64,000 bases of DNA from Eubacteriales bacterium (GTDB lineage Bacteria; Bacillota; Clostridia; Oscillospirales; QAKW01), in the NCBI GenBank assembly GCA_045544255.1, contig JAZPYP010000007.1:10300-74299 (forward strand), in the 5' to 3' direction. The notes below the pieces were generated by a model. That model searched no databases. It had not been told where the DNA came from and saw only the letters and a program-made list of their open reading frames with translations. Positions 14,067-30,345 of the stretch are shown here, in pieces. Position 1 is the first letter of the stretch. The number at the start of each line of letters is the position of its first letter. Position numbers and translations under genes: made by a program.

Positions 14067-15155
14067 ATGGCAATTAAAGAAAAATCCTTCCGCATCGGTT
14101 GCGGAAGATATCTGCAGGAAAAGGGAATTATTCAAACTCTTGGAAGCGAGGTTTTGCGCCTTGGAAAAAGCGCCTTGGTTTTAGGGGGCGAAACCGCATT
14201 ATCGGTTGCCGATGAGGCAATCGAAAAAAGCCTCCTTCTGAATAAGATCCCTTATGAGATCATCGAATATAAGGGAAGCTGCAATAAAGAGAGCGCAAAG
14301 GAATATGCCGATTATGCCAAGAAAGAGAATTTCGAGGTAATCATCGGCGTTGGCGGCGGGGTTTTAATGGATTTTGCCAAGCTGACCGCATCGTTTGCCG
14401 CCCTGCCGGTGATCAATATTCCAACCTCTTCGGCCACCTGCGCAGCGTTCACTCCTTTGAGCGTTTGCTATACCAAAGTGGGGCGCACTGTTGGCACCGC
14501 TCATTTTGAGCGGGAGGTGGATGCGGTATTGGTGGATCCCGAAATCCTTGCAACCCAGCCTTCCCGCCTGCTTTTGGCGGGGATTTTCGATGCCCTTGCG
14601 AAATATTGGGAGATCAAGCATCGGTTTTCCGAAGAGATGGCCGCCTTTCCCCTTGGCCTTGATTGGGCTTATGTTTTGGCCCAAAAATCCTTCCGCCGGC
14701 TTACCGAGCAAACCGAGCTTTGCCTTAAGGAACTGAAAGAGGGCAAATTGGATGGCGCTTTTGAGCAGATCCTTTTTAATACCATTGCGGTAACAGGGGT
14801 GATCAGCGGCATTGCAAGGGGCTCCAATCAAACTGCTCTTGGGCATAAATTCTATGAGCTGACCCGCAAATGCTATTTCGAGGAAAGCCGCCCCTATCTT
14901 CATGGCGAGATGGTGGGTGTGGGGCTTCTTTTGCAAAACCATTATAATGGCGAGATTGAGAATAATGAATTCCTTCTCTCCCTGATGAAAAAATATAAGA
15001 TGCCTGCTTGCCCTTCGGATGTTGGGGTTTGCTTTGATGAGCAGAAGCGGGAGCAGTATTTTGCCCTTCTGAAGGAAAGCAGCGCCATGGAGGGGTGCGG
15101 GGAAGCGGAATATGAGCGGCTTTATCAAGGCCTTTGCTATCTGGGGGCTTTATAA
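14067..15155 (+). CDS. Glycerol dehydrogenase-like (Fe/Zn-ADH, DHQS superfamily) oxidoreductase
   Basis: GVGGGVLMDFAK, IPTSSATCA, GIFDALAK and HGEMVG motifs. Confidence 0.85.
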   Translation: MAIKEKSFRIGCGRYLQEKGIIQTLGSEVLRLGKSALVLGGETALSVADEAIEKSLLLNKIPYEIIEYKGSCNKESAKEYADYAKKENFEVIIGVGGGVLMDFAKLTASFAALPVINIPTSSATCAAFTPLSVCYTKVGRTVGTAHFEREVDAVLVDPEILATQPSRLLLAGIFDALAKYWEIKHRFSEEMAAFPLGLDWAYVLAQKSFRRLTEQTELCLKELKEGKLDGAFEQILFNTIAVTGVISGIARGSNQTALGHKFYELTRKCYFEESRPYLHGEMVGVGLLLQNHYNGEIENNEFLLSLMKKYKMPACPSDVGVCFDEQKREQYFALLKESSAMEGCGEAEYERLYQGLCYLGAL

Positions 15156-16591
15156 TGGATAAATATGCATATGAAGGGTATATTCGGCCGGGGCGCGTTT
15201 TCGGCGAGATCTATTTTGTTGGGGTGCGGAAAGCTTCAACTCATGTGATCAAAACGGAAGAGGGATTGATTGTTATCGACCCCGGTATGCCCGATACCAT
15301 GGAAATTGTTTTTGATAATATGAGGGAGCTTGGGCTGGATCCCCGCGATACCAAATGGATCCTTCTTTCCCATGGGCATTATGATCATGCAGGAGGAGTG
15401 AAGGCCTTTAAGGCTATCAGCGATTGCAAGGTTTATATCGGCGAGGGGGATCTTGCCATGGTGCGGGGCGATGAAGATACCGCCCTTTCCAAAGATCCCG
15501 ATTACAGAAACCTTTATTCCTTTGAGCCGGATGGATTGCTGAAGGAGGAAGAACCCCTTTCCTTTGGGGGAATTCATCTGCGCTGCTTGGCAACCCCCGG
15601 CCACTCGGCGGGAACCATGTCGCTCTTTTTTGAAATTCCTTTTGAAGGAAAACTTTATCTTGCAGGGATGCATGGGGGAGTGGGGCTTAATACCCTCTCC
15701 AAAGGGTTTTTAGAAAAAAATCATCTGCCTCTTTCTACCCGCGATATCTTTAGAAAAGGGCTCATGCGCGCGGCAGAAGAGCCGGTGGAGATCTTTCTTG
15801 GCAACCATATTGGGAATAATGATACTATCGGGAAATTGGAGCGGGTGCGCGCCGGTGAAAAAATGGCTTTTTATGCGCCTGCGGAATGGAAAGCATTTTT
15901 AAAAAATACGGCCGAAGGCCTGAACGAATTGGAAAGGAAAGAGGATAAAATGGAAAAAACCATTGAAAGAATTTTGAAGCATCAGATCATCACTATTGTG
16001 CGCGGGGTGGCAAAGGAAAAACTGATCCCCTTGGCAGAGGCTATGTATGCAGGGGGAATCCGCCTGATGGAATGCACTTTCGATTCCAAGGGGGAAACCC
16101 CCGATGAGGAGGTGGCCGCCAATATTCAGATGCTTGCGGAGCATTTTGGGGAGCGGATGCTGATCGGAAGCGGCACGGTGCTGACCGAGCGTCAAGTGGA
16201 ACTGACTGCAAAGGCAGGCGGAAAATTCGTTATTTCCCCTAATTTTGATCCGGCGGTGATCCGCAAAACCAAGGCCATGAACCTTGTTTCCATCCCCGGC
16301 ATCTTCACTCCCAGCGAAGCGGTGGCTGCGGTGCAGGCGGGGGCAGATTTTGTGAAGCTTTTCCCCATGGGTGCTCTCGGCCCCAAATATTTAAAGGATC
16401 TTACCGTGCCCCTTTCTCATATCCGCTTTTTGGCGGTGGGCGGGGTAAACGCCGAAAACTTAAAGAATCATCGGGATGCAGGGGCTTGCGGCTATGGGAT
16501 CGCCTCGGAAATTGTGCATAAGCCTTCTATCGAGAAGGGGGATTTTGAAGCCATCACGCAAAGAGCATTGAAGCTGACAAGTCAGCTTTAA
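15155..16591 (+). CDS. Fusion of an MBL-fold hydrolase (subclass B3-like) and a KDPG/KHG aldolase (Eda-like)
   Basis: N-terminal HGHYDHAGG, TPGHS, GNH; C-terminal IGSGTVL, FVISP, VKLFP (Schiff-base Lys), AVGGV. Starts at a TAATG overlap with the upstream gene. Confidence 0.85.
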   Translation: MDKYAYEGYIRPGRVFGEIYFVGVRKASTHVIKTEEGLIVIDPGMPDTMEIVFDNMRELGLDPRDTKWILLSHGHYDHAGGVKAFKAISDCKVYIGEGDLAMVRGDEDTALSKDPDYRNLYSFEPDGLLKEEEPLSFGGIHLRCLATPGHSAGTMSLFFEIPFEGKLYLAGMHGGVGLNTLSKGFLEKNHLPLSTRDIFRKGLMRAAEEPVEIFLGNHIGNNDTIGKLERVRAGEKMAFYAPAEWKAFLKNTAEGLNELERKEDKMEKTIERILKHQIITIVRGVAKEKLIPLAEAMYAGGIRLMECTFDSKGETPDEEVAANIQMLAEHFGERMLIGSGTVLTERQVELTAKAGGKFVISPNFDPAVIRKTKAMNLVSIPGIFTPSEAVAAVQAGADFVKLFPMGALGPKYLKDLTVPLSHIRFLAVGGVNAENLKNHRDAGACGYGIASEIVHKPSIEKGDFEAITQRALKLTSQL

Positions 16592-16760: not shown

Positions 16761-17945
16761 TTGAGTTATTCTGTTTTTGATAAAAAAGAGCAATGCTGCG
16801 GCTGCAGCGCTTGCGCTCAGGTCTGCCCCAAGGGTGCTATCGCAATGATGGCCGATGAAGAGGGCTTTCTCTACCCTTCTATCGATGCCGCAAAGTGCGT
16901 AGAATGCGGCCTCTGCAAAAAGATCTGCGCCTTCCAAAAGGAGCAGCCTGCCCTTGAAGCAGAGCCGCAGGTTTATGCGGTGAAGGCTTCTGATGCGATT
17001 CGGGAGCAAAGCTCCTCCGGCGGCGCCTTCACTGCCCTTTCCGATTGCATTTTAAAGCGGGGCGGAGTGGTCTATGGATCGGCCTTTGATGAGCATTTGA
17101 AGGCGGTGCATATCCGCGCCGAGACGGAAGGGGAGCGGGATCGCTGCCGCGGCTCCAAATATTCCCAAAGCGAGATGGGGGATATTTTTCCAAAGGTGAA
17201 AGAGGATCTTAAAGCAGGGCGGGAAGTGCTTTTTACCGGCACCACCTGCCAGACTGCGGCCCTGCGGGAATATCTTGCCAAAGAAAATACCGAGCGGCTT
17301 TATACTGCCGATATTATTTGCCACGGCACTCCCTCGCCGAAGCTTTTTCAGGAATATATTGGCCATATTGAAAAGGTGCGGGGCAAAAAGATCGCCGCCT
17401 ATTATCATCGCCCCAAGGATCTTGGCTGGAGGGGCGGTGAAAAGCTGATCTATACCGATGGCAAAGCAGAATCGGGCACCACCTTGATTGATGCATGGCG
17501 CAATATATTCTATGGGGATCTTGCGCTGCGCCCCTCTTGCTACGAGTGCCGCTATGCTTCCCCCTGCCGCCCTTCGGATATTACTATTGCGGATTTTTGG
17601 GGAATTGATGAATACGCCCCTGCCTTCAATGATGGGAAGGGAGTTTCTTTGGTTTTGATCAATTCCGAAAAAGGAAAAAGCCTCTTTGAAGAATGCAAGC
17701 CTGTTCTGGCAATCACCGAGAAAAAAATGGAGGAGGCAGTTGTTAAAAATCCCAATTTGCAGAATTCAACGAAATATCCGAAGGGGAGAGAGGAGTTTTG
17801 GCGAATTTATTTAAAAGGCGGAATTGGTGCAATTATGGCTGTTTACGGGAAGGATAACCGAAAGCAAAAAATCAAATATATGATCAAAGGGGTTATTCGC
17901 GGCCTTGGCCTTATGAAACTTGCTAAAAAGATTTTAAAAAAATAA
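16761..17945 (+). CDS. 4Fe-4S protein with F420 hydrogenase/dehydrogenase beta (FrhB/FdhB) C-terminal domain
   Basis: CCGCSACAQVCP and CVECGLCKKIC; SSSGGAF, ICHGTPSP, LRPSCYEC and DITIADFWG motifs. Confidence 0.85.
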   Translation: MSYSVFDKKEQCCGCSACAQVCPKGAIAMMADEEGFLYPSIDAAKCVECGLCKKICAFQKEQPALEAEPQVYAVKASDAIREQSSSGGAFTALSDCILKRGGVVYGSAFDEHLKAVHIRAETEGERDRCRGSKYSQSEMGDIFPKVKEDLKAGREVLFTGTTCQTAALREYLAKENTERLYTADIICHGTPSPKLFQEYIGHIEKVRGKKIAAYYHRPKDLGWRGGEKLIYTDGKAESGTTLIDAWRNIFYGDLALRPSCYECRYASPCRPSDITIADFWGIDEYAPAFNDGKGVSLVLINSEKGKSLFEECKPVLAITEKKMEEAVVKNPNLQNSTKYPKGREEFWRIYLKGGIGAIMAVYGKDNRKQKIKYMIKGVIRGLGLMKLAKKILKK

Positions 17946-18000: not shown

Positions 18001-18029
18001 TTGAAAAAAGCGAACAGAAGTGGTATAAT
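18001..18029 (+). promoter_or_regulatory. atp operon promoter
   Basis: TTGAAA-N17-TATAAT with extended -10 TG. Confidence 0.65.
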
Positions 18030-18048
18030 TTCATCTGTATGTAAGAAG

Positions 18049-18369
18049 GTGATTTTTATCGAAAAGAATATTGTTGGGGCGGCCCTTGCGCTGCTGATCG
18101 GAATCGGCATTGCCGCTTTGAATTACGGCTTGGGCAGATGGTGTCTGAAAAAGAAACCGGAGCGGTATGCCATGCTGCAACCGGTGCGCTCATTGATCCA
18201 GATCGGCTATCTTTTGCTGATCCTTTTGGTTGGGGGCTATACTCCATGGGATCAAATGTGGCTTTTGGTAGGCGGTGCATTGGGGGTAACTCTGCCGATG
18301 CCCTATTTTACCTATCGTTTGGTTAAACTCAATGATGCAAAAGGAAAGGAGGAGGATCCGAATGGGTGA
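18049..18369 (+). CDS. AtpI-like small membrane protein
   Basis: Hydrophobic ORF first in the atp operon. Start uncertain: the track's TTG at 18001 coincides with the -35 box. Confidence 0.6.
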   Translation: MIFIEKNIVGAALALLIGIGIAALNYGLGRWCLKKKPERYAMLQPVRSLIQIGYLLLILLVGGYTPWDQMWLLVGGALGVTLPMPYFTYRLVKLNDAKGKEEDPNG

Positions 18370-19294: not shown

Positions 19295-19304
19295 GGGTGG
19301 CTCA

Positions 19305-19724
19305 ATGACCATTCAGGTATCGATTACAATCTGGGCGATCCTTTGCTTTATCGCCCTGATGCTGATTTTGCATTTTCTTCTTTTTAAGCCTTGCCTTGCG
19401 CTGATGGACCGCCGAAAGGCGAGAATTGATGCGGCAGCAGCGAAAAAAGAAGAATATGAGCAGATTGCCAAAGAGCAGGAAGCAAAAATGATCGCGCAAA
19501 AGGAAGCGGCTCATAAAGCGATGCGCAAGGCCGCAAAGGATGAAATCGAGAAAATTCGCATGGAAAGCAAAAAAGCCTTGGAGATTGCCAAGCGCGAGCG
19601 GATCCGCGAGCTTGATTTCAGCCATAGCAAGGCCGAAATCGAGCGGGCCGAGATCCTTCGGATCCTTGGCAGCCATGCGCGGGATCTGGCCGAAACTTTT
19701 GCTAAAAGTGTTGTAAAGGAATAA
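19305..19724 (+). CDS. atpF: ATP synthase subunit b/b'-like
   Basis: N-terminal TM, LLFKP..ALMDRRKARI, then an Ala/Glu/Lys coiled coil. Confidence 0.85.
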   Translation: MTIQVSITIWAILCFIALMLILHFLLFKPCLALMDRRKARIDAAAAKKEEYEQIAKEQEAKMIAQKEAAHKAMRKAAKDEIEKIRMESKKALEIAKRERIRELDFSHSKAEIERAEILRILGSHARDLAETFAKSVVKE

Positions 19725-19734
19725 GTAGGAATCA

Positions 19735-21945
19735 ATGGAAATCCAATATGTGATCATCAACTTTTTGATCCTTGCCGCAATTATTATTCTCTTTTGCCGC
19801 AAAACCATTGTGCGCCTTTTCCGCTCCAGAAGGGAGCAGATCGAAGCGGCTCTCGATGAAGCGGAGCGGCTGGAGCAGGCAAAGCCGCCGGTGATGCCTG
19901 CCCTTGAAGGGAAGATTGCGCCCGATGCAGTGAATGAAGAGGTTCTTTTGGAGCGAGCCGATGCGGAAGAAAAGATCGCTCAGGTGAAGGCCTTTGGAAA
20001 GCGGGAATGCGATGAGATTCATCGCATGATGATCGAAAAGGTTAAAAAAGAATTCTTTTTATGCCTCAAGGAGAATGTGGCGCAGGTTTTTGCCAAGGAT
20101 CCTTATTATAGCAAAATGCGGGCCTTGGAAGAGAGCCAGATCGATGAGATTTTGAAGCTTATTAAGCTCACCCCCGGTGATATGGCTTATTTAAAGCGCC
20201 ATGATGTGCTTTATGTAACCCTTACCTCGACCTATCCGCTCTCTGAAGAGTTGGTTCAAAAGGTGGATCGGGCTACCACCGAGCTTTTGAAGACTGTTGG
20301 AGGCAAAACCTCTCTTTGGGTGCTGCAGGATCCCTCTTTTATCGGAGGATTGCGGCTGCGCATTGGTGATACGGTTTACGATGGCACCGTTGCCGAAGAA
20401 CTTTATCATTTCGAGAGCAGCATCAAAAAAGATCCCATTTCTTCGGATGAGGCTGCAAAGGAAGTTTTGGCCGAATATGAAGAAAAGGTCAGGAACTATA
20501 CCCCGAAGATCCATGAGTACCAGCTTGGGCGCGTGATGCAGATCTCCGATGGTATTTGCTGGATGGATGGCCTTGCCGATATTATGTATGGCGAGGTTGT
20601 GGAATTCGAATGCGGCGAGCGGGGCATGGTGCTGGATATTCAGCCCGACCGCATCGGTTGCGTTATCTACGGGGAATATGAAAATATCGAAAGCGGCAGT
20701 AAGGTGCGGCGGGTTGGCCGCATTGCTTCTGTGCCGGTGGGCGAAAGCCTTCTCGGGCGCGTGGTAGATGCAGTGGGCAATCCGGTGGATGGCAAAGGCC
20801 ATCTTCCGTTTACCGATCGCCGCCCCATTGAGCATCCCGCACCCGGCATTTTGGATCGGGCGCCTGTTTGCAAACCGCTCCATACCGGCCTGAAGGCCAT
20901 CGATGCCTTGGTACCCATCGGCAGAGGTCAGCGGGAGCTGATCATCGGCGATCGGCAGACCGGTAAGAGCGCCATCGCCCTTGATGCTATCATTAATCAA
21001 AAGGGCAAGGATACCATTTGCGTCTATGTTGCAATCGGGCAGAAGGAAACCTCTATCGCCGAAATTAAGGATCGCTTGGAGCGAAGCGGCGCCATGGAAT
21101 ATACTACCATTGTGGCGGCCCCTGCTTCCGGCTCGGCGGCAACCCAGTATATTGCCCCCTTCTCCGGTACCGCTATGGCGGAATACTTTATGTATGCCGG
21201 CAAGGATGTCTTGATCGTTTATGATGATCTTTCCAAGCATGCGGTGGCTTATCGGGAGCTTTCGCTCTTGCTCCATCGCCCTTCGGGAAGAGAAGCCTAT
21301 CCCGGCGATATTTTCTATCTTCATTCCAGATTGCTGGAGCGCTCCGCCCATCTTTCGGAAGAATTCGGCGGCGGTTCTATAACGGCTCTGCCTATTATTG
21401 AAACCTTGGCCGGCGATATCTCGGCCTATATTCCCACCAATGTCATCTCTATTACCGATGGTCAGATCTTCTTGGAGAGCGAGCTTTTCCATGAGGGCCA
21501 GCGGCCTGCGATCAATGTGGGCCTTTCGGTTTCGCGGGTAGGTGGCGCGGCTCAAACCAAGCTGATGAAGCAGATGGCGGCCTCCTTGCGCACCCGCCTT
21601 GCCCAATATCGGGAACTTGCGGATTTCACCCAGCTTGGCACCGATGTTGATGAAGATACCAAGCGCACGCTGAATGCAGGCGCTCATCTGATGGAAGCCC
21701 TTAAGCAGGGCCGCTATCAGCCGATGGAAGACTGGGCGCAGGCGCTTTTGCTCTTTGCAGTATCCGAAGGCTATGCCGATCAGTTGCCCCTTGAGCAAAT
21801 GGCAGAATTTGAGCGGGAATTGGTTCATTATTTTGCCGATGAACAGGGCGGGATCGTTGATGAATTGAAAACCGGCGCCAAGGCCGATGCCGCTCTTTTG
21901 GAAAAGATGCGGGCAGCCCTTGGAGCATTTTCTGCGAGGGCATAA
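19735..21945 (+). CDS. atpA: Fused ATP synthase b - delta(C-terminal domain) - alpha polypeptide
   Basis: aa 1-~145 b-like (INFLIL TM, RREQIEAALDEAE); aa ~158-230 delta C-domain (VTLTSTYPLSEE, DPSFIGGLRLRIGDTVYDGTV); aa ~236-736 alpha (GDRQTGKS, PSGREAYPGD, ISITDGQI). No stop codon between the parts. Confidence 0.92.
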   Translation: MEIQYVIINFLILAAIIILFCRKTIVRLFRSRREQIEAALDEAERLEQAKPPVMPALEGKIAPDAVNEEVLLERADAEEKIAQVKAFGKRECDEIHRMMIEKVKKEFFLCLKENVAQVFAKDPYYSKMRALEESQIDEILKLIKLTPGDMAYLKRHDVLYVTLTSTYPLSEELVQKVDRATTELLKTVGGKTSLWVLQDPSFIGGLRLRIGDTVYDGTVAEELYHFESSIKKDPISSDEAAKEVLAEYEEKVRNYTPKIHEYQLGRVMQISDGICWMDGLADIMYGEVVEFECGERGMVLDIQPDRIGCVIYGEYENIESGSKVRRVGRIASVPVGESLLGRVVDAVGNPVDGKGHLPFTDRRPIEHPAPGILDRAPVCKPLHTGLKAIDALVPIGRGQRELIIGDRQTGKSAIALDAIINQKGKDTICVYVAIGQKETSIAEIKDRLERSGAMEYTTIVAAPASGSAATQYIAPFSGTAMAEYFMYAGKDVLIVYDDLSKHAVAYRELSLLLHRPSGREAYPGDIFYLHSRLLERSAHLSEEFGGGSITALPIIETLAGDISAYIPTNVISITDGQIFLESELFHEGQRPAINVGLSVSRVGGAAQTKLMKQMAASLRTRLAQYRELADFTQLGTDVDEDTKRTLNAGAHLMEALKQGRYQPMEDWAQALLLFAVSEGYADQLPLEQMAEFERELVHYFADEQGGIVDELKTGAKADAALLEKMRAALGAFSARA

Positions 21946-21948
21946 GCC

Positions 21949-22770
21949 ATGGCAGCAATTCAAAGCTTGAAAAAGCAATTAAAAGGCATTCGATCCACCC
22001 AAAAACTTACCAAGGCGATGAAAACCATCTCCACAGTGAAGTTTTCCAAGTTGAACGGGCTTTATAGCGATTATTCTGCCTATGGAAAAGAATGCGCCGC
22101 TCTTCTCTCTCAATTTGGGGGCGCTTTTGCGGCCTCGATCGGCATGGAGGCGCCCGATGCTCCCGCTGCAGTGGTGGTTATTGCAGGGAATAAGGGCTTA
22201 TGCGGAAGCTTCAATGCGGAACTTTTGCATTTTGCCGAAAGCAAATTGGAAGAGTTTGATGAGCTGAAGCTCTATACTTGCGGGAAAAAAGCAAGCCAAT
22301 ATTTCAAGGGCAAAAAACGGCCCTTGGAGCGGGAAGCGGTTTTTGCCGATCTTCCCGATTATGATGAGGTCTCTTCTCTTCTGGAAGAGTTGCTGGAGCG
22401 CCGCAAGCGCGGCGAGATCGGCCGCATCTGCGTGATTTATCCCGAATATCGGAATATGATGATTCAGCGCCCTGTGATCCGCGATCTTTTCAGCGCTCCC
22501 GAAGGGGGGGCAGAAGCGCCTTGCCTTTATTTTCCCGATCAGCAAACCTTGGTGGATCGGGCGGCGAAAACGATCTTTCGGGCTGTTTTCTATGGCTGGG
22601 TGCTGGAGGCGGCCATCGGCGCCCAAGCGGCCACTTTGATGACCATGCGCTCCGCTTTCGATACAGCGACCGAATATTGCGCCCAACTGGAAGGGCAGAT
22701 CAATCGCCAAAGGCAGAGCGCAGTTACCGCGGATGTAATCGAAACCTCCTCTGAACGGAGCGAGAGTTAA
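21949..22770 (+). CDS. atpG: ATP synthase gamma subunit
   Basis: TQKLTKAMK, NKGLCGSFN and NRQRQSAVT motifs. Confidence 0.93.
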   Translation: MAAIQSLKKQLKGIRSTQKLTKAMKTISTVKFSKLNGLYSDYSAYGKECAALLSQFGGAFAASIGMEAPDAPAAVVVIAGNKGLCGSFNAELLHFAESKLEEFDELKLYTCGKKASQYFKGKKRPLEREAVFADLPDYDEVSSLLEELLERRKRGEIGRICVIYPEYRNMMIQRPVIRDLFSAPEGGAEAPCLYFPDQQTLVDRAAKTIFRAVFYGWVLEAAIGAQAATLMTMRSAFDTATEYCAQLEGQINRQRQSAVTADVIETSSERSES

Positions 22771-24265: not shown

Positions 24266-24544
24266 ATGAGCATTACATTGAAGATAGTAACCCCTGCAGG
24301 AATTGTGGGGCCTCTTTCCTGCGATTCTGTGCGGCTGACTCTTTCCGACGATCTTTCGGAGAGGGGCGGCGGCTCTTTCGGAATTCGCGAGGGGCATAGC
24401 AAATCCTTGCTTTCCTTAATGGAAGGGCCCATGGAGGCTTTAATGGAGGAAAAAACCATTTTAAAGGGGCGCCATGGTCAGGGTTTTGCAACCATTGAAA
24501 ATAATGAGGTTAAAATCATAACGGAACGCTTCGAAAAAGAATAA
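24266..24544 (+). CDS. atpC: ATP synthase epsilon subunit, N-terminal domain only
   Basis: LKIVTPAG, GSFGIREGH and GFATIENNEVKIITE; 92 aa. Confidence 0.8.
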   Translation: MSITLKIVTPAGIVGPLSCDSVRLTLSDDLSERGGGSFGIREGHSKSLLSLMEGPMEALMEEKTILKGRHGQGFATIENNEVKIITERFEKE

Positions 24545-24683: not shown

Positions 24684-24712
24684 TTGACAATTATAGTAAT
24701 ATAAATTAAAAT
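24684..24712 (+). promoter_or_regulatory. rnf operon promoter
   Basis: TTGACA-N17-TAAAAT. Confidence 0.6.
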
Positions 24713-24776: not shown

Positions 24777-26093
24777 ATGGCATTTTATCTTCCGGGAACC
24801 CATGTTCCCCATCGAAAAAATACGCTGAAAACCCCGATTGCTTCCTTGGGTGCGCCCAAAACTGTATCCATTCCCATGGCGATGCATATCGGAAAGCCTG
24901 CTGTTCCTATTGTGAAGGTGGGCGATTTGGTAAAGGTCGGCACCAAGATCGGCGAGGCAGATGGATATATCTCCTCTCCTGTTTACTCCAGTGTATCCGG
25001 CAAGGTGATCAAACTGCAGGATTATCTGCAAATGAATGGGATGATGACCACTGCTGTGGTGATCGAATCCGATGGTGCCATGGAGCGGGAAGCGCTTTCT
25101 GCCCCCTCTATTAATAGCAGAGAAGATCTGATCAATGCAGTGAAAGAAAGCGGCATTGTGGGCCTTGGGGGCGCAGGGTTTCCCACTTATGTGAAGCTTG
25201 ATGCGGATCCTGCGCGCATGGAATATTTGATTATCAACGGCGCCGAATGCGAGCCTTATGTTACCAGCGATACCGTAACCATGCTGAATCGGGCTGAAGA
25301 GATGGCCTTTGCCCTTAAAGCCCTTCATCGGTGGCTTGGGATTAAGCAGGTAATTATCGGAATCGAAAATAATAAGAAGGAAGCAATCCTTCAGATGAAA
25401 AAAATGGCCGCTTCCATTGAGGAATGCAAGGTTGAGGTAAAGAGCCTTCCCGCTCTTTACCCCCAAGGGGGCGAAAAGGTGCTGGTCTACCATACCACAG
25501 GGCGCAAAATTCCCATGAATAAGCTTCCTATCGAAGTGGGATGCGTGGTAATGAACTGCACCACTTTGGCCGCCATCGGCGGCTATCTGCAAACCGGTAT
25601 GCCTTTGGTGGAAAAATGCGTTACGGTTGATGGCGGCGCGGTGAAGGAGCCGAAAAATGTGGTTGCCCCTATCGGAGCATCCTTTAAGGATCTCTTTGAT
25701 TGCTGCGGCGGCCTTTCGGAAGAGCCTGCCAAGCTGATCTATGGGGGGCCCATGATGGGCATTACCGTTGCCAGTGCGGATGCTCCCATTATGAAAAATA
25801 CCAATGCGATCCTGGCGCTGACCGAAAAGGAAACCAAGCTGCCGAAAACTACTGCCTGCATTCGTTGCGGCGCGTGCGTGAATACCTGCCCCTTCGGCCT
25901 TGCGCCTATGGCCATTGCCTCTGCTTATGATAAAGAGGATGCCGAGGAGCTTTCCGCCCTTAAGGTGGAGGCCTGCATGGAATGCGGTTGCTGCAGCTAT
26001 GTTTGCCCCGCAAATCGCCCCTTGGTGCAGATCAATAAGCTTTCCAAGCAATTATTGAAAGAAATCAGAATGAAGGAGGAAAAGAAGGCATGA
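24777..26093 (+). CDS. rnfC: Rnf complex subunit C
   Basis: GIVGLGGAGFPT, INGAECEPY, GGPMMG and two CxxCxxCxxxCP motifs. Confidence 0.95.
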   Translation: MAFYLPGTHVPHRKNTLKTPIASLGAPKTVSIPMAMHIGKPAVPIVKVGDLVKVGTKIGEADGYISSPVYSSVSGKVIKLQDYLQMNGMMTTAVVIESDGAMEREALSAPSINSREDLINAVKESGIVGLGGAGFPTYVKLDADPARMEYLIINGAECEPYVTSDTVTMLNRAEEMAFALKALHRWLGIKQVIIGIENNKKEAILQMKKMAASIEECKVEVKSLPALYPQGGEKVLVYHTTGRKIPMNKLPIEVGCVVMNCTTLAAIGGYLQTGMPLVEKCVTVDGGAVKEPKNVVAPIGASFKDLFDCCGGLSEEPAKLIYGGPMMGITVASADAPIMKNTNAILALTEKETKLPKTTACIRCGACVNTCPFGLAPMAIASAYDKEDAEELSALKVEACMECGCCSYVCPANRPLVQINKLSKQLLKEIRMKEEKKA

Positions 26094-27010
26094 GTTCTTT
26101 ATCGAAACTGACTGTTTCTCCCCATATTCATAGCGGCCGCTCCACAAGCGGGATCATGCTTGAGGTTTTGATCGCGCTGCTGCCTGCCACCTTTATGGGG
26201 GCCTATATCTTCGGCCTGCGCTCCCTTTTGGTGGTTGCCCTTTGCATGATCTGCTCTGTTGGCTTTGAGGCGCTCTTTAATCTGATCATGAAGCGGGAGC
26301 AGACCATCGGCGATCTTTCCACCGCGGTTACCGGCCTGCTGCTTGCTTTGAACCTGCCTGCCAATATCCCCCTTTGGCAATGCGCGGTGGGCAGCCTTTT
26401 TGCCATCATTTTGGTAAAATGCTTATTTGGCGGAATCGGCCAGAATCTGGTGAACCCCGCCATTGCGGCGCGGGTATTTATGCTGGTAGCCTTCGGCTCG
26501 ATGGCAAAAGCCGCATTCCCTGCAGATGCAGTGGCATCGGCAACGCCTTTGGCGGCAGAGAAAATGCCCTCTCTGATGGATCTTTTCTTTGGGAACCATG
26601 GAGGCGCCATCGGCGAAACCTGCGCCTTTGCGCTCCTGATCGGCGGGATCTATCTTTTGGTGCGCAAGATCATCACTTGGCATATTCCTGCATCTTTTAT
26701 TGCTACTGTATTTATCTTTTCCCTCTTCATGGAGGGCTTTGATGCTTCGGCCGCTCTTGCGCAGGTTTTGGCCGGCGGGCTTTTGATCGGCGCCTTCTTT
26801 ATGGCCACCGATTATGTTACCTCTCCCGAAACCCCTTGGGGCAAGATCATCTTCGGCCTTGGGGCAGGGCTTTTAACCTGCCTGATCCGCTATTTCGGCA
26901 GCTATCCTGAAGGGGTATCCTTCGCCATTCTCTTTATGAATATTCTTACTCCCTATATCACCCGCTGGACGCGTAGAAAAGTTTTCGGAACAGGAGGGGA
27001 GCAAAAATGA
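26090..27010 (+). CDS. rnfD: Rnf complex subunit D
   Basis: SPHIH, FGGIGQNLVNPA, ASATPL (FMN Thr) and MATDYVTSP motifs. Confidence 0.95.
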   Translation: MSSLSKLTVSPHIHSGRSTSGIMLEVLIALLPATFMGAYIFGLRSLLVVALCMICSVGFEALFNLIMKREQTIGDLSTAVTGLLLALNLPANIPLWQCAVGSLFAIILVKCLFGGIGQNLVNPAIAARVFMLVAFGSMAKAAFPADAVASATPLAAEKMPSLMDLFFGNHGGAIGETCAFALLIGGIYLLVRKIITWHIPASFIATVFIFSLFMEGFDASAALAQVLAGGLLIGAFFMATDYVTSPETPWGKIIFGLGAGLLTCLIRYFGSYPEGVSFAILFMNILTPYITRWTRRKVFGTGGEQK

Positions 27011-28161
27011 TCAAGAGCATTAAAAATATTGCGGTTTTGGTTTGCATCTGCAGCGCTATTGTATTGCTCTTGGCGCTCACCAATTCCATTACCGCTCCTG
27101 CTATCGAAAAAAATCAAAATGCTGCCGCTAATGCGGCCCTTCTCGAAGTGATGCCGGAAGGCAAGGGCTTCGAGGTGATGGATCTTGGGGGATTTGAGCT
27201 TCCCGCCACCGTTACCGAAGTGCATAAGGAGACCGAAGGCCTTGGCTATGTGGTGAAGCTTACCACCTCCGGTTATGGTTCGGATATGGTCATTATGTGT
27301 GGCGTGGGGGCCGATGGAGTGGTAACCGGTGCGGTATGCCTCTCTTCCAATGAAACCCTTGGCCATGAAAAAACCTATGGTGCAAATTTTGCCGAAAAAG
27401 ATGCGGCAGGAGTGGAAGCGGTAGATACCCTTGCAGGGGCTACCAAAACCACCGAGGCTTATAAAAACGCTGTGAAGGATGCATTGAACGCCGCAATCAT
27501 TTTGGGCGGCGGTTCGGTAGATATTCGCACCGAAGAGCAGATCCTTGCCGATAATCTTGCCGCCGCTCTTCCCGCAGGCGATACCTTTGAGAAGGTATTT
27601 ATCGTTGAAGAGTTGGCAGGCGTTGATGCCATTTATGCCGCCAAGAACGGCGCAGGGTATGTCTGCCTGATCGGTGAGGAATTTATCGGCGTTGGCGCCG
27701 ATGGAGCTTCCGCCGATGAAAAGGCGGCAGATGCAGTGGCTAAAATCAAGGCGACCTCCTTTGAGGAACTGGACGCATCCGCCCATGAAGAGATCGCGGA
27801 TTTTGTGGTCTCTGCGAAAAAGACCGATAGCGGCAACTATTTGATCGAAACCAAAGGCGCCGGCTATGGCATTAAGGGCGGCAACGAATGGCATCCTGCC
27901 TCCGGCGAATATATTGTTGTGAAGGTGGCAATTTCTGCCGCCGGCAAGATTCTTGATTGCGCAACTGTTTCGGAAGCGGAAACTGATGGCTTGGGCGATG
28001 CCTGCGCCGATGAGAGCTTCTATGGCCAGTTTATCGGCAAAGAGGAAGCAAACTATACCGAAATTGATGGGATCAGTGGCGCGACCATGACCACCGATGG
28101 CTATAAGCAAGCCATTCAAAGAGCTTATGAAGCGATGAAGATTTTGAAAGGAGGTGCCTGA
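27007..28161 (+). CDS. rnfG: RnfG-like subunit with two FMN-binding domains
   Basis: N-terminal TM, then two domains with NETLG/AETDGLG and flavinylation motifs DTLAGAT and DGISGAT. Confidence 0.88.
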   Translation: MIKSIKNIAVLVCICSAIVLLLALTNSITAPAIEKNQNAAANAALLEVMPEGKGFEVMDLGGFELPATVTEVHKETEGLGYVVKLTTSGYGSDMVIMCGVGADGVVTGAVCLSSNETLGHEKTYGANFAEKDAAGVEAVDTLAGATKTTEAYKNAVKDALNAAIILGGGSVDIRTEEQILADNLAAALPAGDTFEKVFIVEELAGVDAIYAAKNGAGYVCLIGEEFIGVGADGASADEKAADAVAKIKATSFEELDASAHEEIADFVVSAKKTDSGNYLIETKGAGYGIKGGNEWHPASGEYIVVKVAISAAGKILDCATVSEAETDGLGDACADESFYGQFIGKEEANYTEIDGISGATMTTDGYKQAIQRAYEAMKILKGGA

Positions 28162-28892
28162 TGATGAAGAAAACCAATGATAAAAATACAGAGATGTGGC
28201 TTAATAATTTTCTTGTAAATCTTGAAACTTTTTGTAACGGAATTATCAAAGAAAATCCCGTTTTGGTGCTCATTCTCGGCACCTGCCCCACTCTGGCTAC
28301 CACCACAACTGTGAATGGCGCTTTGGGTATGGGGATCGCGGCTTTGGCAGTGCTTGTATGCTCCAATGTATTTATCTCTCTTTTGAGAAAGATCATTCCC
28401 GAATCCATGCGGATCCCTTGCTATATCGTTATTATCGCAGGGTTTGTTACCATTGTTAAATTAATTGTGCAGGCCTTCCTGCCCGATCTTTATGCCACCC
28501 TTGGCGTTTATCTTGATTTGATCACGGTCAACTGCATTATCCTTGGCCGCGCCGAAATGTTTGCGGGGAAAAACCCTGTGGTCCGCTCCGCTCTCGATGG
28601 AGTGGGAATGGGGCTTGGATTTACCCTTGCCCTCGGCGCCATGGCCTTTATCCGCGAGGTTTTCGGCAATGGCTCTATTGCGGGGGTTGCCATTCCTTTT
28701 ATGGAAAATTATAAGATCGAGTTTCTCACCAAGGCCCCCGGCGGCTTAGTGGTATATGGATTGCTGATCGCTTTGATCCATGCGGTAACCAAGGGGAAGG
28801 CTCCATTAAAGAAATCCTTCTCCTGCGAGGGTTGCCCCAATGCGAGCACCTGCCATGCTGAATCTTGCGCCAAGAAAGGAGAGAAAGAATAA
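28161..28892 (+). CDS. rnfE: Rnf complex subunit E
   Basis: ENPVLVLILGTCPTLA and LITVNCIILGRAE motifs. Confidence 0.95.
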   Translation: MMKKTNDKNTEMWLNNFLVNLETFCNGIIKENPVLVLILGTCPTLATTTTVNGALGMGIAALAVLVCSNVFISLLRKIIPESMRIPCYIVIIAGFVTIVKLIVQAFLPDLYATLGVYLDLITVNCIILGRAEMFAGKNPVVRSALDGVGMGLGFTLALGAMAFIREVFGNGSIAGVAIPFMENYKIEFLTKAPGGLVVYGLLIALIHAVTKGKAPLKKSFSCEGCPNASTCHAESCAKKGEKE

Positions 28893-29491
28893 TGGAAATG
28901 TTTAAAGTATTAATCATCATCCTGCTCTCTTCTGTTTTGGTAGATAACTATGTTTTAAGCCGCTTTCTCGGAATCTGCCCCTTCCTTGGGGTTTCCAAAA
29001 AGCTGGATCAGGCCACCGGCATGGGCGTTGCGGTAACGATTGTGATGCTGATCGCCACCGCTGTAACTTGGCCGATTCAATATTTTGTATTGAATACGCT
29101 GAATCTTGGCTATCTGCAAAATATTGTATTTATTCTTGTGATTGCCACTTTGGTTCAGATGCTGGAGTTGGTGCTGAAGAAGCTTTCGCCCGCCCTTTAT
29201 AAGGGCCTTGGCGTTTATCTGCCGCTCATCACCACCAACTGCGCGGTGCTGGGTGTAACCATTAATAATATCATTGATGGCTATTCCTTTATTGAATCTA
29301 TGGTCAGCTCTTTGGGTTGCGGCCTTGGCTTCCTTTTGGCAATGGTTCTCTTTTCGGGTTTGCGCTCCCGCATTAATGAGAGCAATGTGCCCGAACCCTT
29401 TAAGGGCTTGGCTGTTACCCTGATTGCCGCCTCCTTCATCTCCCTTGCTTTTATGGGCTTTGGCGGCATTGTTGAAAATATTTTTGCATAA
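28892..29491 (+). CDS. rnfA: Rnf complex subunit A
   Basis: FLGICPFLGVS and LPLITTNCAVLG motifs. Confidence 0.95.
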   Translation: MEMFKVLIIILLSSVLVDNYVLSRFLGICPFLGVSKKLDQATGMGVAVTIVMLIATAVTWPIQYFVLNTLNLGYLQNIVFILVIATLVQMLELVLKKLSPALYKGLGVYLPLITTNCAVLGVTINNIIDGYSFIESMVSSLGCGLGFLLAMVLFSGLRSRINESNVPEPFKGLAVTLIAASFISLAFMGFGGIVENIFA

Positions 29492-29511
29492 AGCAAGGAA
29501 AGGAGAAAAGA

Positions 29512-30345
29512 ATGGATATTTTAATTGCATTTCTTGTGATGGTTGCGGTGGCTTTGATCGCCGGAATCCTGATCGCTGTTTTCTCTCATTTCTTCGCTGT
29601 TGCTGAAAATCCCCTTAAAAAGCAGCTTCGGGAATGCCTGCCCGGCATTAATTGCGGCGCATGCGGCTATAAGGGCTGCGATGATTATGCCGAAGCTTTG
29701 GCAGAGGGCGGAGTGAAGCCCAATCTTTGCATTCCCGGCGCGCAGGATGTGGCCGATGAGATCGGCGGCATCCTCGGTGTTGAGGCGGAGCCTTTTAAAG
29801 ATGTTGTGGCTTTTGTGGCATGCAATGGCCATTGCGAGGCCGCTTCCAAAAAGGCGGAATATGAAGGGGTGCAGACCTGCGCCGCCGCCTCCATGCTCTT
29901 TGGCGGCGATAATGCCTGTCGCTTCGGTTGCCTTGGTTTTGGCGATTGCGCCGCCGCTTGCCCTGCCGATGCCATCTGCATGGAAGAGGGAATTGCGCGG
30001 ATCAATACCGCTCGCTGCCTTGGCTGCGGCATCTGCGCCAATACCTGCCCCAAGGGAATTATTTCCATGCTCTCGCAGCATGCAGAAACCGTTGTAATGT
30101 GCAGCAGCAAGGATAAGGGCGGGGAGGCCCGCAAGGCCTGCAAAAACGCTTGTATCGGCTGCAAAAAATGCGAAAAGACCTGCCCCCATGGAGCAATCAC
30201 TGTGCAGGATAATCTGGCGGTGATCGATTATGAAAAGTGCGTAAATTGCGGAAGTTGCGTGGCAGTTTGCCCCACCGGTTGCCTCAAAACCGTATTCTTC
30301 CCCAACCTGCCCGAAGGGGTGGATCATGAGGATCTGATCGGTTGA
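29512..30345 (+). CDS. rnfB: Rnf complex subunit B
   Basis: LPGINCGACGYKGC and several ferredoxin motifs. Confidence 0.95.
   Translation: MDILIAFLVMVAVALIAGILIAVFSHFFAVAENPLKKQLRECLPGINCGACGYKGCDDYAEALAEGGVKPNLCIPGAQDVADEIGGILGVEAEPFKDVVAFVACNGHCEAASKKAEYEGVQTCAAASMLFGGDNACRFGCLGFGDCAAACPADAICMEEGIARINTARCLGCGICANTCPKGIISMLSQHAETVVMCSSKDKGGEARKACKNACIGCKKCEKTCPHGAITVQDNLAVIDYEKCVNCGSCVAVCPTGCLKTVFFPNLPEGVDHEDLIG

Follow-up and report, generated by a model that had tools for sequence, protein, structure and literature searches.

[quoted passage not shown]

The numbers of stalks and a-subunits in F-type ATP synthases were long assumed to be fixed at one. [quoted passage not shown] The assumption was overturned in 2025, by engineering (three stalks) and by the Chloroflexus enzyme (two stalks). 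In the engineered enzyme, delta lacking its N-domain was fused to alpha of Bacillus PS3, which yielded up to three stalks and up to three a-subunits and an H+/ATP ratio of 5.8 compared with 3.0 (Ueno et al., Nat Commun 2025; PMC12229609). The stalks observed always kept their a-subunit; few particles had three stalks, and protons were pumped more slowly (PMC12229609). Because the b homodimer of this enzyme is free and can come off, the mean stalk occupancy was about two, and the loss of stalks blurred the link between the number of a-subunits and H+/ATP; the authors call a stable multi-stalk enzyme still needed (PMC12229609). The three-stalk design has so far been shown by engineering only. 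The F1Fo of Chloroflexus aurantiacus contains two stalks and two a-subunits (PDB 9ITJ; PNAS 2025, PMC12002316), a multiplicity that arises from a dimer of shortened delta N-domains, with nothing fused. Natural delta(C)-alpha fusions have also been named, with a multi-stalk prediction (Acidaminococcus fermentans; UniProt G4Q3K6, A0A1I2C5T3; PMC12229609), and a preprint describes 'delta or its C-terminal part at the N-terminus of alpha' (bioRxiv 10.64898/2026.10.01.756066). The link between delta-alpha fusions and extra stalks, which a preliminary description of the present DNA had mentioned, is correct (Ueno et al., 2025; PMC12229609).

The window analyzed here is a stretch of 64,000 nucleotides from contig JAZPYP010000007.1 of an Eubacteriales bacterium of the gut (assembly GCA_045544255.1). 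The features of its ATP synthase operon are summarized in Table 1. [quoted passage not shown] Pfam, NCBIfam and the frame itself, which has no internal stop, agree on this reading.

Table 1. Coordinates of the ATP synthase operon and of the segments of the fusion protein in the window.
Feature	Position	Strand	Basis or remark
Promoter-like site, TTGAAA-17-TATAAT, TG before -10	18001..18029	+	11/12 hexamer matches; consensus match only
atpI-like small membrane protein, start uncertain	18001..18369	+	PF03899 ATP-synt_I, E 2.5e-4, 21.9 bits, cut-off 25.1
atpB, Fo subunit a, 234 aa	18332..19036	+	PF00119, 161.6 bits
atpE, Fo subunit c, 75 aa	19067..19294	+	PF00137, 68.5 bits
Free b-type stalk subunit, 139 aa	19305..19724	+	PF00430, 27.0 bits, cut-off 28
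b-delta(C)-alpha fusion gene	19735..21945	+	736 aa plus stop, ATG start
Fused b, membrane helix, residues 4-22	19744..19800	+	Kyte-Doolittle; PS3 b alignment
Fused b, stalk part, residues 23-145	19801..20169	+	Profile homology to solved b
Fused b, Pro-rich segment of variable length, residues 49-68	19879-19938	+	
Conserved TPGD turn and delta C-terminal domain, residues 146-232	20170..20430	+	OSCP match
Short linker, residues 233-237; site of former alpha start codon (residue 236)	20431..20445	+	
Complete alpha including N-terminal helix, residues 238-736	20446..21942	+	TIGR00962
atpG, gamma, 273 aa	21949..22770	+	PF00231, 165.9 bits
atpD, beta, 464 aa	22866..24260	+	PF00006, 249.6 bits
atpC, epsilon, beta-sandwich only, 92 aa	24266..24544	+	PF02823, 27.9 bits, residues 4-88

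The N-terminal part of the fusion protein carries one hydrophobic helix (Kyte-Doolittle maximum over 19 residues of 2.66, starting at residue 3), in which N9, F10 and L13 are invariant and which aligns with the membrane helix of PS3 b. The Pfam model ATP-synt_B (PF00430) covers residues 4–48 only and scores 26.9 bits, just below its 28-bit cut-off; at E ≤ 0.001 it matches 42 of 43 members of the fusion family. A profile built from 42 fused-b sequences aligns with PS3 b (6n2y_b2) over residues 3–118 against 11–131 of 168 (E 2.2e-10), and also matches chloroplast b and, weakly, the mycobacterial b-delta chains (7JG5 chain d, E 0.003; 8J0S chain d, E 0.018). By these alignments, the fused b module covers nearly the whole length of a stalk subunit. 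The Pro-rich segment of the module holds P52 in 112 of 117 relatives and accepts insertions of up to 9 residues among them, to which nothing corresponds in the free b. In this lineage the fused b is therefore no canonical, rigid, in-register coiled coil from end to end.

[quoted passage not shown] The OSCP model (PF00213) aligns residues 154–229 with profile positions 98–171 of 172 (39.8 bits, cut-off 22.3), its C-terminal part matches all 43 of 43 relatives, and the NCBIfam delta models likewise match the fusion over their C-terminal part only (about 100–178). The N-terminal helical bundle of delta, which caps F1 and contacts the N-termini of alpha (OSCP profile positions 1–97), finds no match within the fusion protein. 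Since these positions are unmatched in both the protein and the genome, the delta region is a fragment and not a full delta. The linker to alpha shows at most one gap among 117 relatives and no indels, and residue 238 aligns with residue 3 of PS3 alpha. From there alpha is complete: the three alpha domains of Pfam lie at residues 265–328, 385–600 and 607–731, and TIGR00962 (atpA) aligns residues 241–734 with profile positions 4–499 of 503 (719.7 bits, cut-off 484.45). The P-loop GDRQTGKS is present, with G405–K411 invariant among 43 sequences. [quoted passage not shown]

The best solved match of residues 136–340 is chain 9jc1_I, named 'delta subunit, alpha subunit' (580 aa; E 1.1e-29; three such chains per entry). 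The alignment is collinear through the delta C-terminal domain, the linker and alpha, with one 2-residue and one 1-residue gap. PDB 9JC1 and 9JC2 are the construct of Ueno et al. (2025; PMC12229609). As in that construct, the delta N-domain is gone, the delta C-terminal domain stands in frame with the alpha N-terminus behind a short linker, and epsilon lacks its C-terminal domain. In contrast to the construct, the window gene is natural, it holds one b in the same chain and is accompanied by a separate b of a different kind, and its Fo resembles that of chloroplasts rather than that of Bacillus. Compared with the class of N-truncated delta-alpha fusions in general, the window gene has the absent N-domain, the in-frame joint of delta and alpha and no separate delta, but one b lies within the reading frame instead of being separate and binding each delta C-terminal domain. 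The published natural delta(C)-alpha fusions share with the window the loss of the delta N-domain and the joining of the remainder to alpha; as they are described in the texts of that paper and of the 2026 preprint, their b is a separate gene (PMC12229609). The preliminary description knew of no fusion that also includes b, and none appeared in the published texts that our literature searches covered. Natural delta(C)-alpha fusions and their multi-stalk prediction are already known, and what is added here is the covalent b module.

The mycobacterial b-delta protein (atpFH; 7JG5, 8J0S) resembles the window in that b stands N-terminal to delta and a free b is encoded just upstream; the order of the genes, a-c-b-(b-delta)-alpha, agrees too. 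Unlike the window fusion, however, it contains a full-length delta with its N-domain, its alpha is separate, and the enzyme has one stalk. Chloroplast and cyanobacterial synthases (6FKF, 22VL) share the presence of two different b-type genes (b and b'): the free-b profile leads to chloroplast b' and the fused-b profile to chloroplast b. The window a and c are also nearest to the chloroplast subunits, and the ion-binding stretch MEALTIYGL of c is identical, which by sequence places the Fo with the chloroplast/cyanobacterial type. In contrast to the window, delta in these enzymes is complete and, like alpha, a protein of its own, and there is one stalk. The N-ATPase model TIGR03324 scores 602.2 bits on the window alpha, below its cut-off of 750.5.

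The operon runs in the order atpI-like, a, c, free b, fusion, gamma, beta, epsilon. This canonical order, which does not start with beta-epsilon, confirms the earlier statement that the operon is not N-ATPase-like, and Pfam over the operon reading frames likewise finds no separate atpH or atpA. The promoter-like site overlaps the TTG start of the atpI-like frame, so that this start is uncertain; a frame of about 104–134 aa occupies the same position in relatives. The nearest solved chains of subunit a are those of chloroplasts (22vl_a, E 7.8e-39; 6fkf_a, 1.4e-29). Subunit c is nearest to 2wie_A (E 2.8e-20), from what we take to be a c15 ring, then to chloroplast c (3v3c, 2w5j, 4mjn; 14 chains per entry), and reaches Bacillus PS3 c at 1.7e-11 only. 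The free b occupies a position like that of cyanobacterial atpG (b'). A profile of 41 orthologues matches Chloroflexus b best (9itj_U, E 3.7e-15), from an enzyme with two unfused stalks, then chloroplast b' (22vl_p, 5.8e-10); it aligns with PS3 b over residues 8–138 against 11–141 of 168 and ends about 25 residues short of canonical b. A free b immediately precedes the fusion gene in 80 of 83 distinct loci and in all 58 of 58 further loci. BLASTP finds no match between the free and the fused b, and their relation is visible by profiles only (hhalign probability 95.8%). The hydrophobic periodicity of the free b fits a b-type coiled coil weakly (peak 3.65, reached by 4.3% of shuffles). Epsilon lacks the C-terminal helical (inhibitory) domain and is short in 8 of 8 relatives; six measure 90–96 aa, and the two frames called at 107 and 119 aa both start inside the end of beta. 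The rnfCDGEAB genes adjoin the operon downstream, but a lasting linkage was rejected, with rnfC or rnfD found within about 3.7 kb of epsilon in none of 8 relatives.

The fusion operon is the only rotary ATPase in the genome, a draft assembly of 2.17 Mb in 85 contigs that is 97.26% complete. PF00006 matches this alpha, one beta, one sub-threshold sequence and nothing else, and no V-type enzyme is found in the genome. PF00213 at E ≤ 1 matches the fusion only, and the delta N-domain was not found with it across the 97.26%-complete genome; the domain is deleted from the fusion and encoded nowhere else in this genome. Subunits a and c are each encoded once, and nothing points to a raised dosage of a. 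In other carrier genomes, the fusion belongs to the only alpha/beta pair in 12 of 17.

Since the source is a draft assembly, we considered whether a lost stop, a frameshift or a chimeric assembly could have wrongly joined three genes. Three DNA runs, each from a different other study, give contigs that span both junctions (19300–20951, 19300–20611 and 19300–21240) with zero indels and no stop, which supplies the support across the junctions that the preliminary description had asked for. Of 35 substitutions listed inside the frame, 30 affect the third base of a codon; 31 leave the amino acid unchanged and none introduces a stop, a pattern of purifying selection. One RNA run gave short pieces on conserved stretches of alpha and one piece at 21783–22000, none of them spanning a junction. 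Together with intact orthologues whose N-terminal parts are 36–89% identical, and with the fusion being the sole alpha gene of the genome, the bridging contigs and the substitution pattern refute an artefact or pseudogene, for which we see next to no probability. The fusion is a real gene under selection.

A search of proteins that combine b, delta and alpha, as had been suggested, verified 133 distinct intact triple-fusion loci in gut and rumen Clostridia genomes, with record titles naming Oscillospiraceae, Acutalibacteraceae and Ruminococcaceae. These counts rest on per-locus checks of the reading frame; raw frame lengths read through stops in at least two loci. Residues 1–260 of the fusion match 1561 database proteins at E ≤ 1e-3, and among the best 120 of these 117 measure 700–800 aa. 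The 46 shorter matches have scattered lengths, and all six that were inspected run into alpha or end in aberrant tails, so these are fragments and not split genes. In a tree of 117 alpha domains, all 34 triple fusions form one exclusive split (support 0.993), while 10 of 11 double fusions stand in a split of their own, apart from the triple clade. Delta(C)-alpha double fusions of 570–609 aa occur in species of the genus and of the family to which the window belongs. Their operons, where inspected within the family, contain a single b of 161–180 aa, and 8 of 9 encode a longer a and an N-terminally extended c. The double-fusion alpha domains are of a different lineage, and a recent origin of the triple fusion from a double fusion was rejected, as two trees separate the alpha lineages. 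Fusions of a full-length delta to alpha (664–711 aa) were found in 6 genomes of the same order.

F1 contains three alpha subunits and the fusion is the only alpha gene, so three covalently attached stalks are most likely. Each fused stalk would pair with one free b, as b/b' heterodimers do, and, by analogy with the engineered PS3 enzyme, each would probably hold its own a-subunit against the c-ring. The predicted composition is about (b-deltaC-alpha)3 beta3 gamma epsilon b3 a(2-3) c(n). Each c would exchange an ion at every a that it passes, so that the ions per ATP could rise up to threefold. The c-rings of chloroplasts and cyanobacteria are large and proton-driven; with an a and a c nearest to theirs and a large ring, the ion/ATP ratio could be very high. 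Such an enzyme may synthesize ATP at a very low ion-motive force and, in reverse, could move many ions per ATP. We thus infer a multi-stator enzyme with several a-subunits and a higher ion/ATP ratio. Three a-subunits may carry a kinetic cost, given the slower pumping of the engineered enzyme. On the whole of the evidence, we consider it more likely than not that the product of this selected triple-fusion gene forms three covalent stalks, each probably with its own a.

In the full-length delta-alpha fusions, three delta N-domains cannot all occupy the canonical central site, so that fusion by itself is no proof of every copy remaining joined and in use. Alpha might be freed from most copies, by proteolysis or by initiation within the gene close to the former alpha start, which would leave one fused and two free copies in an ordinary synthase whose stalk happens to be covalently attached. 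Such processing would also resolve how the full-length delta-alpha fusions of related genomes can be packed. Some relatives may initiate internally at residue 236, where the ancestral alpha had its Met1: 31 of 79 relatives have a start codon there (ATG in 30). The window itself has Ser at this position and no Met or other start codon between M150 and M268, as the preliminary description had observed for the alpha boundary. A ribosome-binding-like motif (a 4-mer) precedes only 1 of the 31 start codons at 236 and 2 of the 48 found at M268 (48 of 79 relatives), compared with 55 of 79 at the true start of the fusion; no in-frame start within residues 140–290 has a conserved motif of this kind in the 79 relatives. 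Synonymous variability does not drop at the boundary (0.827 over codons 225–270; gene mean 0.770, sd 0.162), and the junction mRNA shows no unusual structure (fold z = -0.19). Searches for Rfam elements and repeats gave nothing relevant, and those for promoters within the fusion gene gave chance-level matches only. A -1 frameshift that would yield b-deltaC was rejected, since the A-rich codons 231–232 are not conserved (K38/N35/S18 and R74/K23/Q11 of 117). The gap-free, conserved linker suggests a structural constraint over a cleavage loop. By these comparisons, the alpha boundary is without a conserved internal start codon, ribosome-binding site or RNA element, and release of most of the alpha appears quite improbable.

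Another possibility is that three stalks form around a single a, in which case the extra arms would be braces or tethers that stiffen the stator, and the ion/ATP ratio would stay at one third of the c-ring size. There is one a gene whose dosage is not visibly raised, and the Pro-rich segment of variable length gives the fused b a flexible look. A/V-type enzymes have two or three stalks and a single a (PMC12002316), and the engineered triple-a enzyme is slower at pumping (PMC12229609). However, the A/V stalks lack a membrane anchor, whereas each fused arm here brings a membrane helix of its own and is accompanied by a conserved free b. Every stalk seen in the engineered enzyme bore an a (PMC12229609), and the two stalks of Chloroflexus come with two a-subunits (PMC12002316). 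We regard three stalks on one a as unlikely, though it deserves more weight than the release of free alpha. The fullest form of the multi-stator enzyme is a natural, obligate three-stator synthase, (b-deltaC-alpha)3 beta3 gamma epsilon b3 a3 c(n), with a ring of perhaps 13–15 and about 13–15 H+/ATP, in which a stalk could not be lost, being covalently welded to alpha. It would be just the stable multi-stalk enzyme that Ueno et al. find lacking. We give this form slightly less than an even chance.

The window gene is the natural version of the engineered design with the stalk tied on. Its carriers form a whole clade of abundant Clostridia of the rumen and gut, with at least 133 species-level genomes from animal guts, and in most of the carrier genomes checked it belongs to the sole ATP synthase. 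To our knowledge, no natural delta(C)-alpha fusion has been examined so far. Source annotations, where they name these proteins, call them 'subunit alpha' or 'subunit delta', and either name alone hides the b and delta parts. The gene is a construct ready for use in asking whether a single c-ring can serve three a-subunits and which coupling ratio follows, and it raises the question of why fermenting gut anaerobes would want a low-gear enzyme. If the three-stator form with about 13–15 H+/ATP were true, its ratio would amount to two to three times that of any enzyme known from nature, and the minimum ion-motive force for ATP synthesis by life would have to be set lower.

The triple fusion is an open reading frame of 736 codons without internal stops. 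Residues 4–48 match a b-type Pfam profile at 26.9 bits, slightly below the 28-bit cut-off, and residues 154–229 cover only positions 98–171 of the 172-position OSCP/delta profile, which corresponds to the C-terminal domain (deltaC). Three alpha domains follow (residues 265–328, 385–600 and 607–731). Residues 241–734 score 719.7 bits against the NCBIfam atpA model (cut-off 484.45); the N-ATPase alpha model gives 602.2 bits, below its cut-off of 750.5. [quoted passage not shown] The gene order is atpI-like, a, c, free b (139 aa), fusion, gamma, beta and epsilon. In the whole genome (2.17 Mb), PF00006 hits are limited to this alpha, a single beta and a third match below threshold, the fusion is the sole PF00213 match at E≤1, and subunits a and c have one gene each. 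On the basis of these searches, no free alpha, free delta, delta N-domain or V-type enzyme was found in the 97.26%-complete genome, so the lack of separate atpH and atpA, described earlier for the operon, extends genome-wide.

Coordinates of the atp operon features and neighboring genes in the window
Feature	Coordinates	Strand	Description
Metallo-beta-lactamase/aldolase ORF	15134–16591		485 aa; metallo-beta-lactamase-fold domain (30–167) and KDPG/KHG aldolase domain (279–476)
FrhB/FdhB-like protein	16761–17945		394 aa; two 4Fe-4S motifs, FrhB/FdhB N and C domains
Promoter-like site	18001–18029		ahead of the atp operon
Triple fusion	19735–21945	+	b-deltaC-alpha
Codon 236	20440–20442		aligned with canonical alpha Met1
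Epsilon	24266–24544		92 aa; beta-sandwich only
Promoter-like site	24684–24712		ahead of rnfC
rnfCDGEAB	24777–30345		complete operon directly downstream of the atp operon

RnfG is long (384 aa) and has two FMN_bind stretches. The atp-rnf adjacency is not conserved, as rnfC/rnfD lie within ~3.7 kb downstream of epsilon in none of eight relatives. The 394-aa protein resembles the F420 hydrogenase/dehydrogenase beta subunit, and the host is a non-methanogen.

As judged by profile comparison, the fused N-terminal module is a genuine, nearly full-length b. It begins with one strongly hydrophobic helix, and PF00430 is matched by 42 of 43 fusion members. A profile of 42 fused-b sequences aligns with PS3 b (E 2.2e-10; 3–118 against 11–131 of 168); further matches are chloroplast b and, at weak significance, the b-delta fusion of mycobacteria, and hhalign gives 95.8% for fused against free b. 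The free-b profile matches Chloroflexus b (9itj_U, E 3.7e-15), PS3 b and chloroplast b'. Since its alignment with PS3 b (8–138 against 11–141 of 168) ends at 141, free b lacks ~25 C-terminal residues of canonical b. The window's subunits a and c most closely resemble those of the chloroplast enzyme. Gene position and best hits together assign the operon, at the sequence level, to the cyanobacterial b'/b type; the b gene adjoining delta has been joined to deltaC and alpha, with loss of the delta N-domain. The C-terminal helical (inhibitory) domain is missing from epsilon in the window and in all eight triple-fusion relatives compared (L126–L133), and window epsilon has no match among solved chains at E≤0.01.

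The best solved match to residues 136–340 is PDB 9jc1 chain I (E 1.1e-29), a 580-aa chain named 'ATP synthase delta subunit, ATP synthase subunit alpha' and present three times per entry; this entry describes the fusion enzyme engineered in Bacillus PS3 (Ueno et al., 2025, PMC12229609). The alignment is collinear from deltaC over the linker into the N-terminus of alpha, interrupted by one 2-residue and one 1-residue gap. Residue 236, at the old alpha Met1 position, is Ser in the window, in agreement with the reported lack of a Met at the alpha boundary; among 79 relatives, 30 have an ATG codon there, apparently a relic of the ancestral alpha start codon. The linker shows no indels across 117 sequences (at most one gap), and the b-deltaC turn (T146, G148, D149 and Y152) is invariant.

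With residues 1–260 as query, 1561 of 7998 scored candidate proteins matched at E≤1e-3; among the best 120 of these, 117 are 700–800 aa long and 86 exactly 736 aa. Species-representative genomes were scanned with a window query and with two proteins, P0137 and P0140, all counts being lower bounds. The window query gave at least 83 distinct intact fusions (733–745 aa), P0137 at least 14 loci (742–759 aa) and P0140 at least 40 additional fusions under a strict test, together with 8 further loci that have a similar N-terminus and fall below a crude membrane-helix test. The search for other proteins combining b, delta and alpha thus yields, with one more locus (L134), at least 133 distinct N-termini. 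Carriers are labeled throughout as uncultured gut or rumen Clostridia (Acutalibacteraceae, Ca. Fimenecus, Oscillospiraceae, Ruminococcaceae, Vescimonas, Oscillibacter and Ca. Limivicinus), apart from a few oddly labeled bins. The full-length fusion occurs in 17 of 401 genomes, from three families, in an even sample of the order and in 2 of 399 scored genomes of the class, the second carrier being from another order and also having an a-c-b-fusion operon; in an even phylum sample of 401 genomes, the window's own genome is the sole carrier. Free b lies directly upstream in 80/83 and 58/58 loci, and 55 of the 58 retain the c-subunit motif E-x-L-[T/A]-I-Y. Of 17 other carrier genomes, 12 have no alpha/beta pair beyond that of the fusion operon.

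A FastTree built from 117 alpha domains unites the 34 triple fusions in a single exclusive split (support 0.993), and other groups are formed by double fusions, deltaC-alpha without b (10/11), and full delta-alpha fusions (5/6). A quick IQ-TREE with 34 rows is in agreement. This exclusive split points to a single origin of the triple fusion, which would then have been kept over deep divergence. Double fusions of ~570–609 aa with a separate b of 159–180 aa occur at ten loci (L014, L118–L125 and L142) in species of the window's genus, family and class; within one genus, species carry either the triple or the double fusion. Eight of these loci (L118–L125) have a long a-subunit (278–291 aa) and an N-terminally extended c-subunit (111–127 aa, motif IETAIIY or VETVVIY), a pattern unlike that of L014 and L142. 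Six genomes of the window's order (L223–L228) join full delta, N-domain included, to alpha in single ORFs of 664–711 aa, which pose their own stoichiometry puzzle because the canonical central F1 site cannot take three N-domains. Two apparent delta-alpha fusions (L034 and L036; 694 and 700 aa) were rejected, as in-frame stop codons separate the two genes; apparent open-frame length in genome scans is insufficient alone for calling fusions.

Ueno et al. (2025, PMC12229609) report that, when deltaC is joined to alpha and the delta N-domain is missing, up to three stalks bind, every stalk observed keeps an a-subunit, three a-subunits fit on the c10 ring and H+/ATP rises from 3.0 to 5.8. We consider it probable that the window's enzyme, too, has several stators and more than one a-subunit. 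Several observations count against this reading: segment 49–68 of fused b is Pro-rich and length-variable in this lineage, free b is truncated and the periodicity test for a b-type coiled coil is weak, full-length delta-alpha fusions occur in the same order, and the engineered enzyme pumps more slowly (Ueno et al., 2025). An enzyme with three stalks and a single a-subunit seems unlikely to us. An assembly artefact would be exceedingly improbable, since contigs from three DNA runs of three studies span the fusion junctions (19300–20951, 19300–20611 and 19300–21240) without insertions or deletions, which provides the sequence support sought over 20150–20520. Twenty runs from 11 studies are listed for 19300–22000, nine with at least half of the sampled words; the sequence recovered from the RNA run lies outside both junctions. 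Among 35 substitutions listed within the ORF, 30 affect the third position of a codon; 31 leave the amino acid unchanged, four are conservative and none creates a stop.

That processing leaves a single stalk we regard as quite unlikely. Tests of internal starts, synonymous variability, RNA fold and promoters gave no sign of separately made free alpha. No in-frame ATG, GTG or TTG in codons 140–290 of 79 aligned genes has a conserved ribosome-binding-like 4-mer (1/31 at position 236 and 2/48 at M268, against 55/79 at the real start). Synonymous-site variability in codons 225–270 is not reduced (0.827 versus a gene mean of 0.770, sd 0.162), the junction RNA has no unusual structure (z = -0.19) and no Rfam match, and promoter matches inside the gene stay at chance level. 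A search for shorter forms returned 46 proteins of scattered lengths on short contigs; the six inspected all continue into alpha or finish in aberrant tails, and were rejected as split genes, being fragments.

Multi-stalk enzymes built on natural deltaC-alpha fusions were already proposed in the Discussion of Ueno et al. (2025), bearing out the link between delta-alpha fusions and extra stalks drawn in the preliminary description. A 2026 preprint (bioRxiv 10.64898/2026.10.01.756066) notes b-delta and delta-alpha fusions separately, and Chloroflexus has two stalks via a delta N-domain dimer (PMC12002316). A full-text literature search found no description of a single chain combining b, deltaC and alpha, as the preliminary description had supposed, although supplementary material could hold a case; sources name the triple-fusion proteins 'subunit alpha' or 'subunit delta, partial'. 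The multi-stalk idea for deltaC-alpha is therefore known, and what is added here is b in the same chain. In the engineered enzyme stalks are lost by b2 detachment, and a stably bound multi-stalk enzyme was called for (Ueno et al., 2025), whereas the fused b of the window is covalently continuous with deltaC and alpha. A b on each alpha would make all three stalks obligatory, and each fused stalk would pair with one free b. Because each stalk probably clamps an a-subunit, the ions translocated per turn would equal the c-ring size multiplied by the number of a-subunits.
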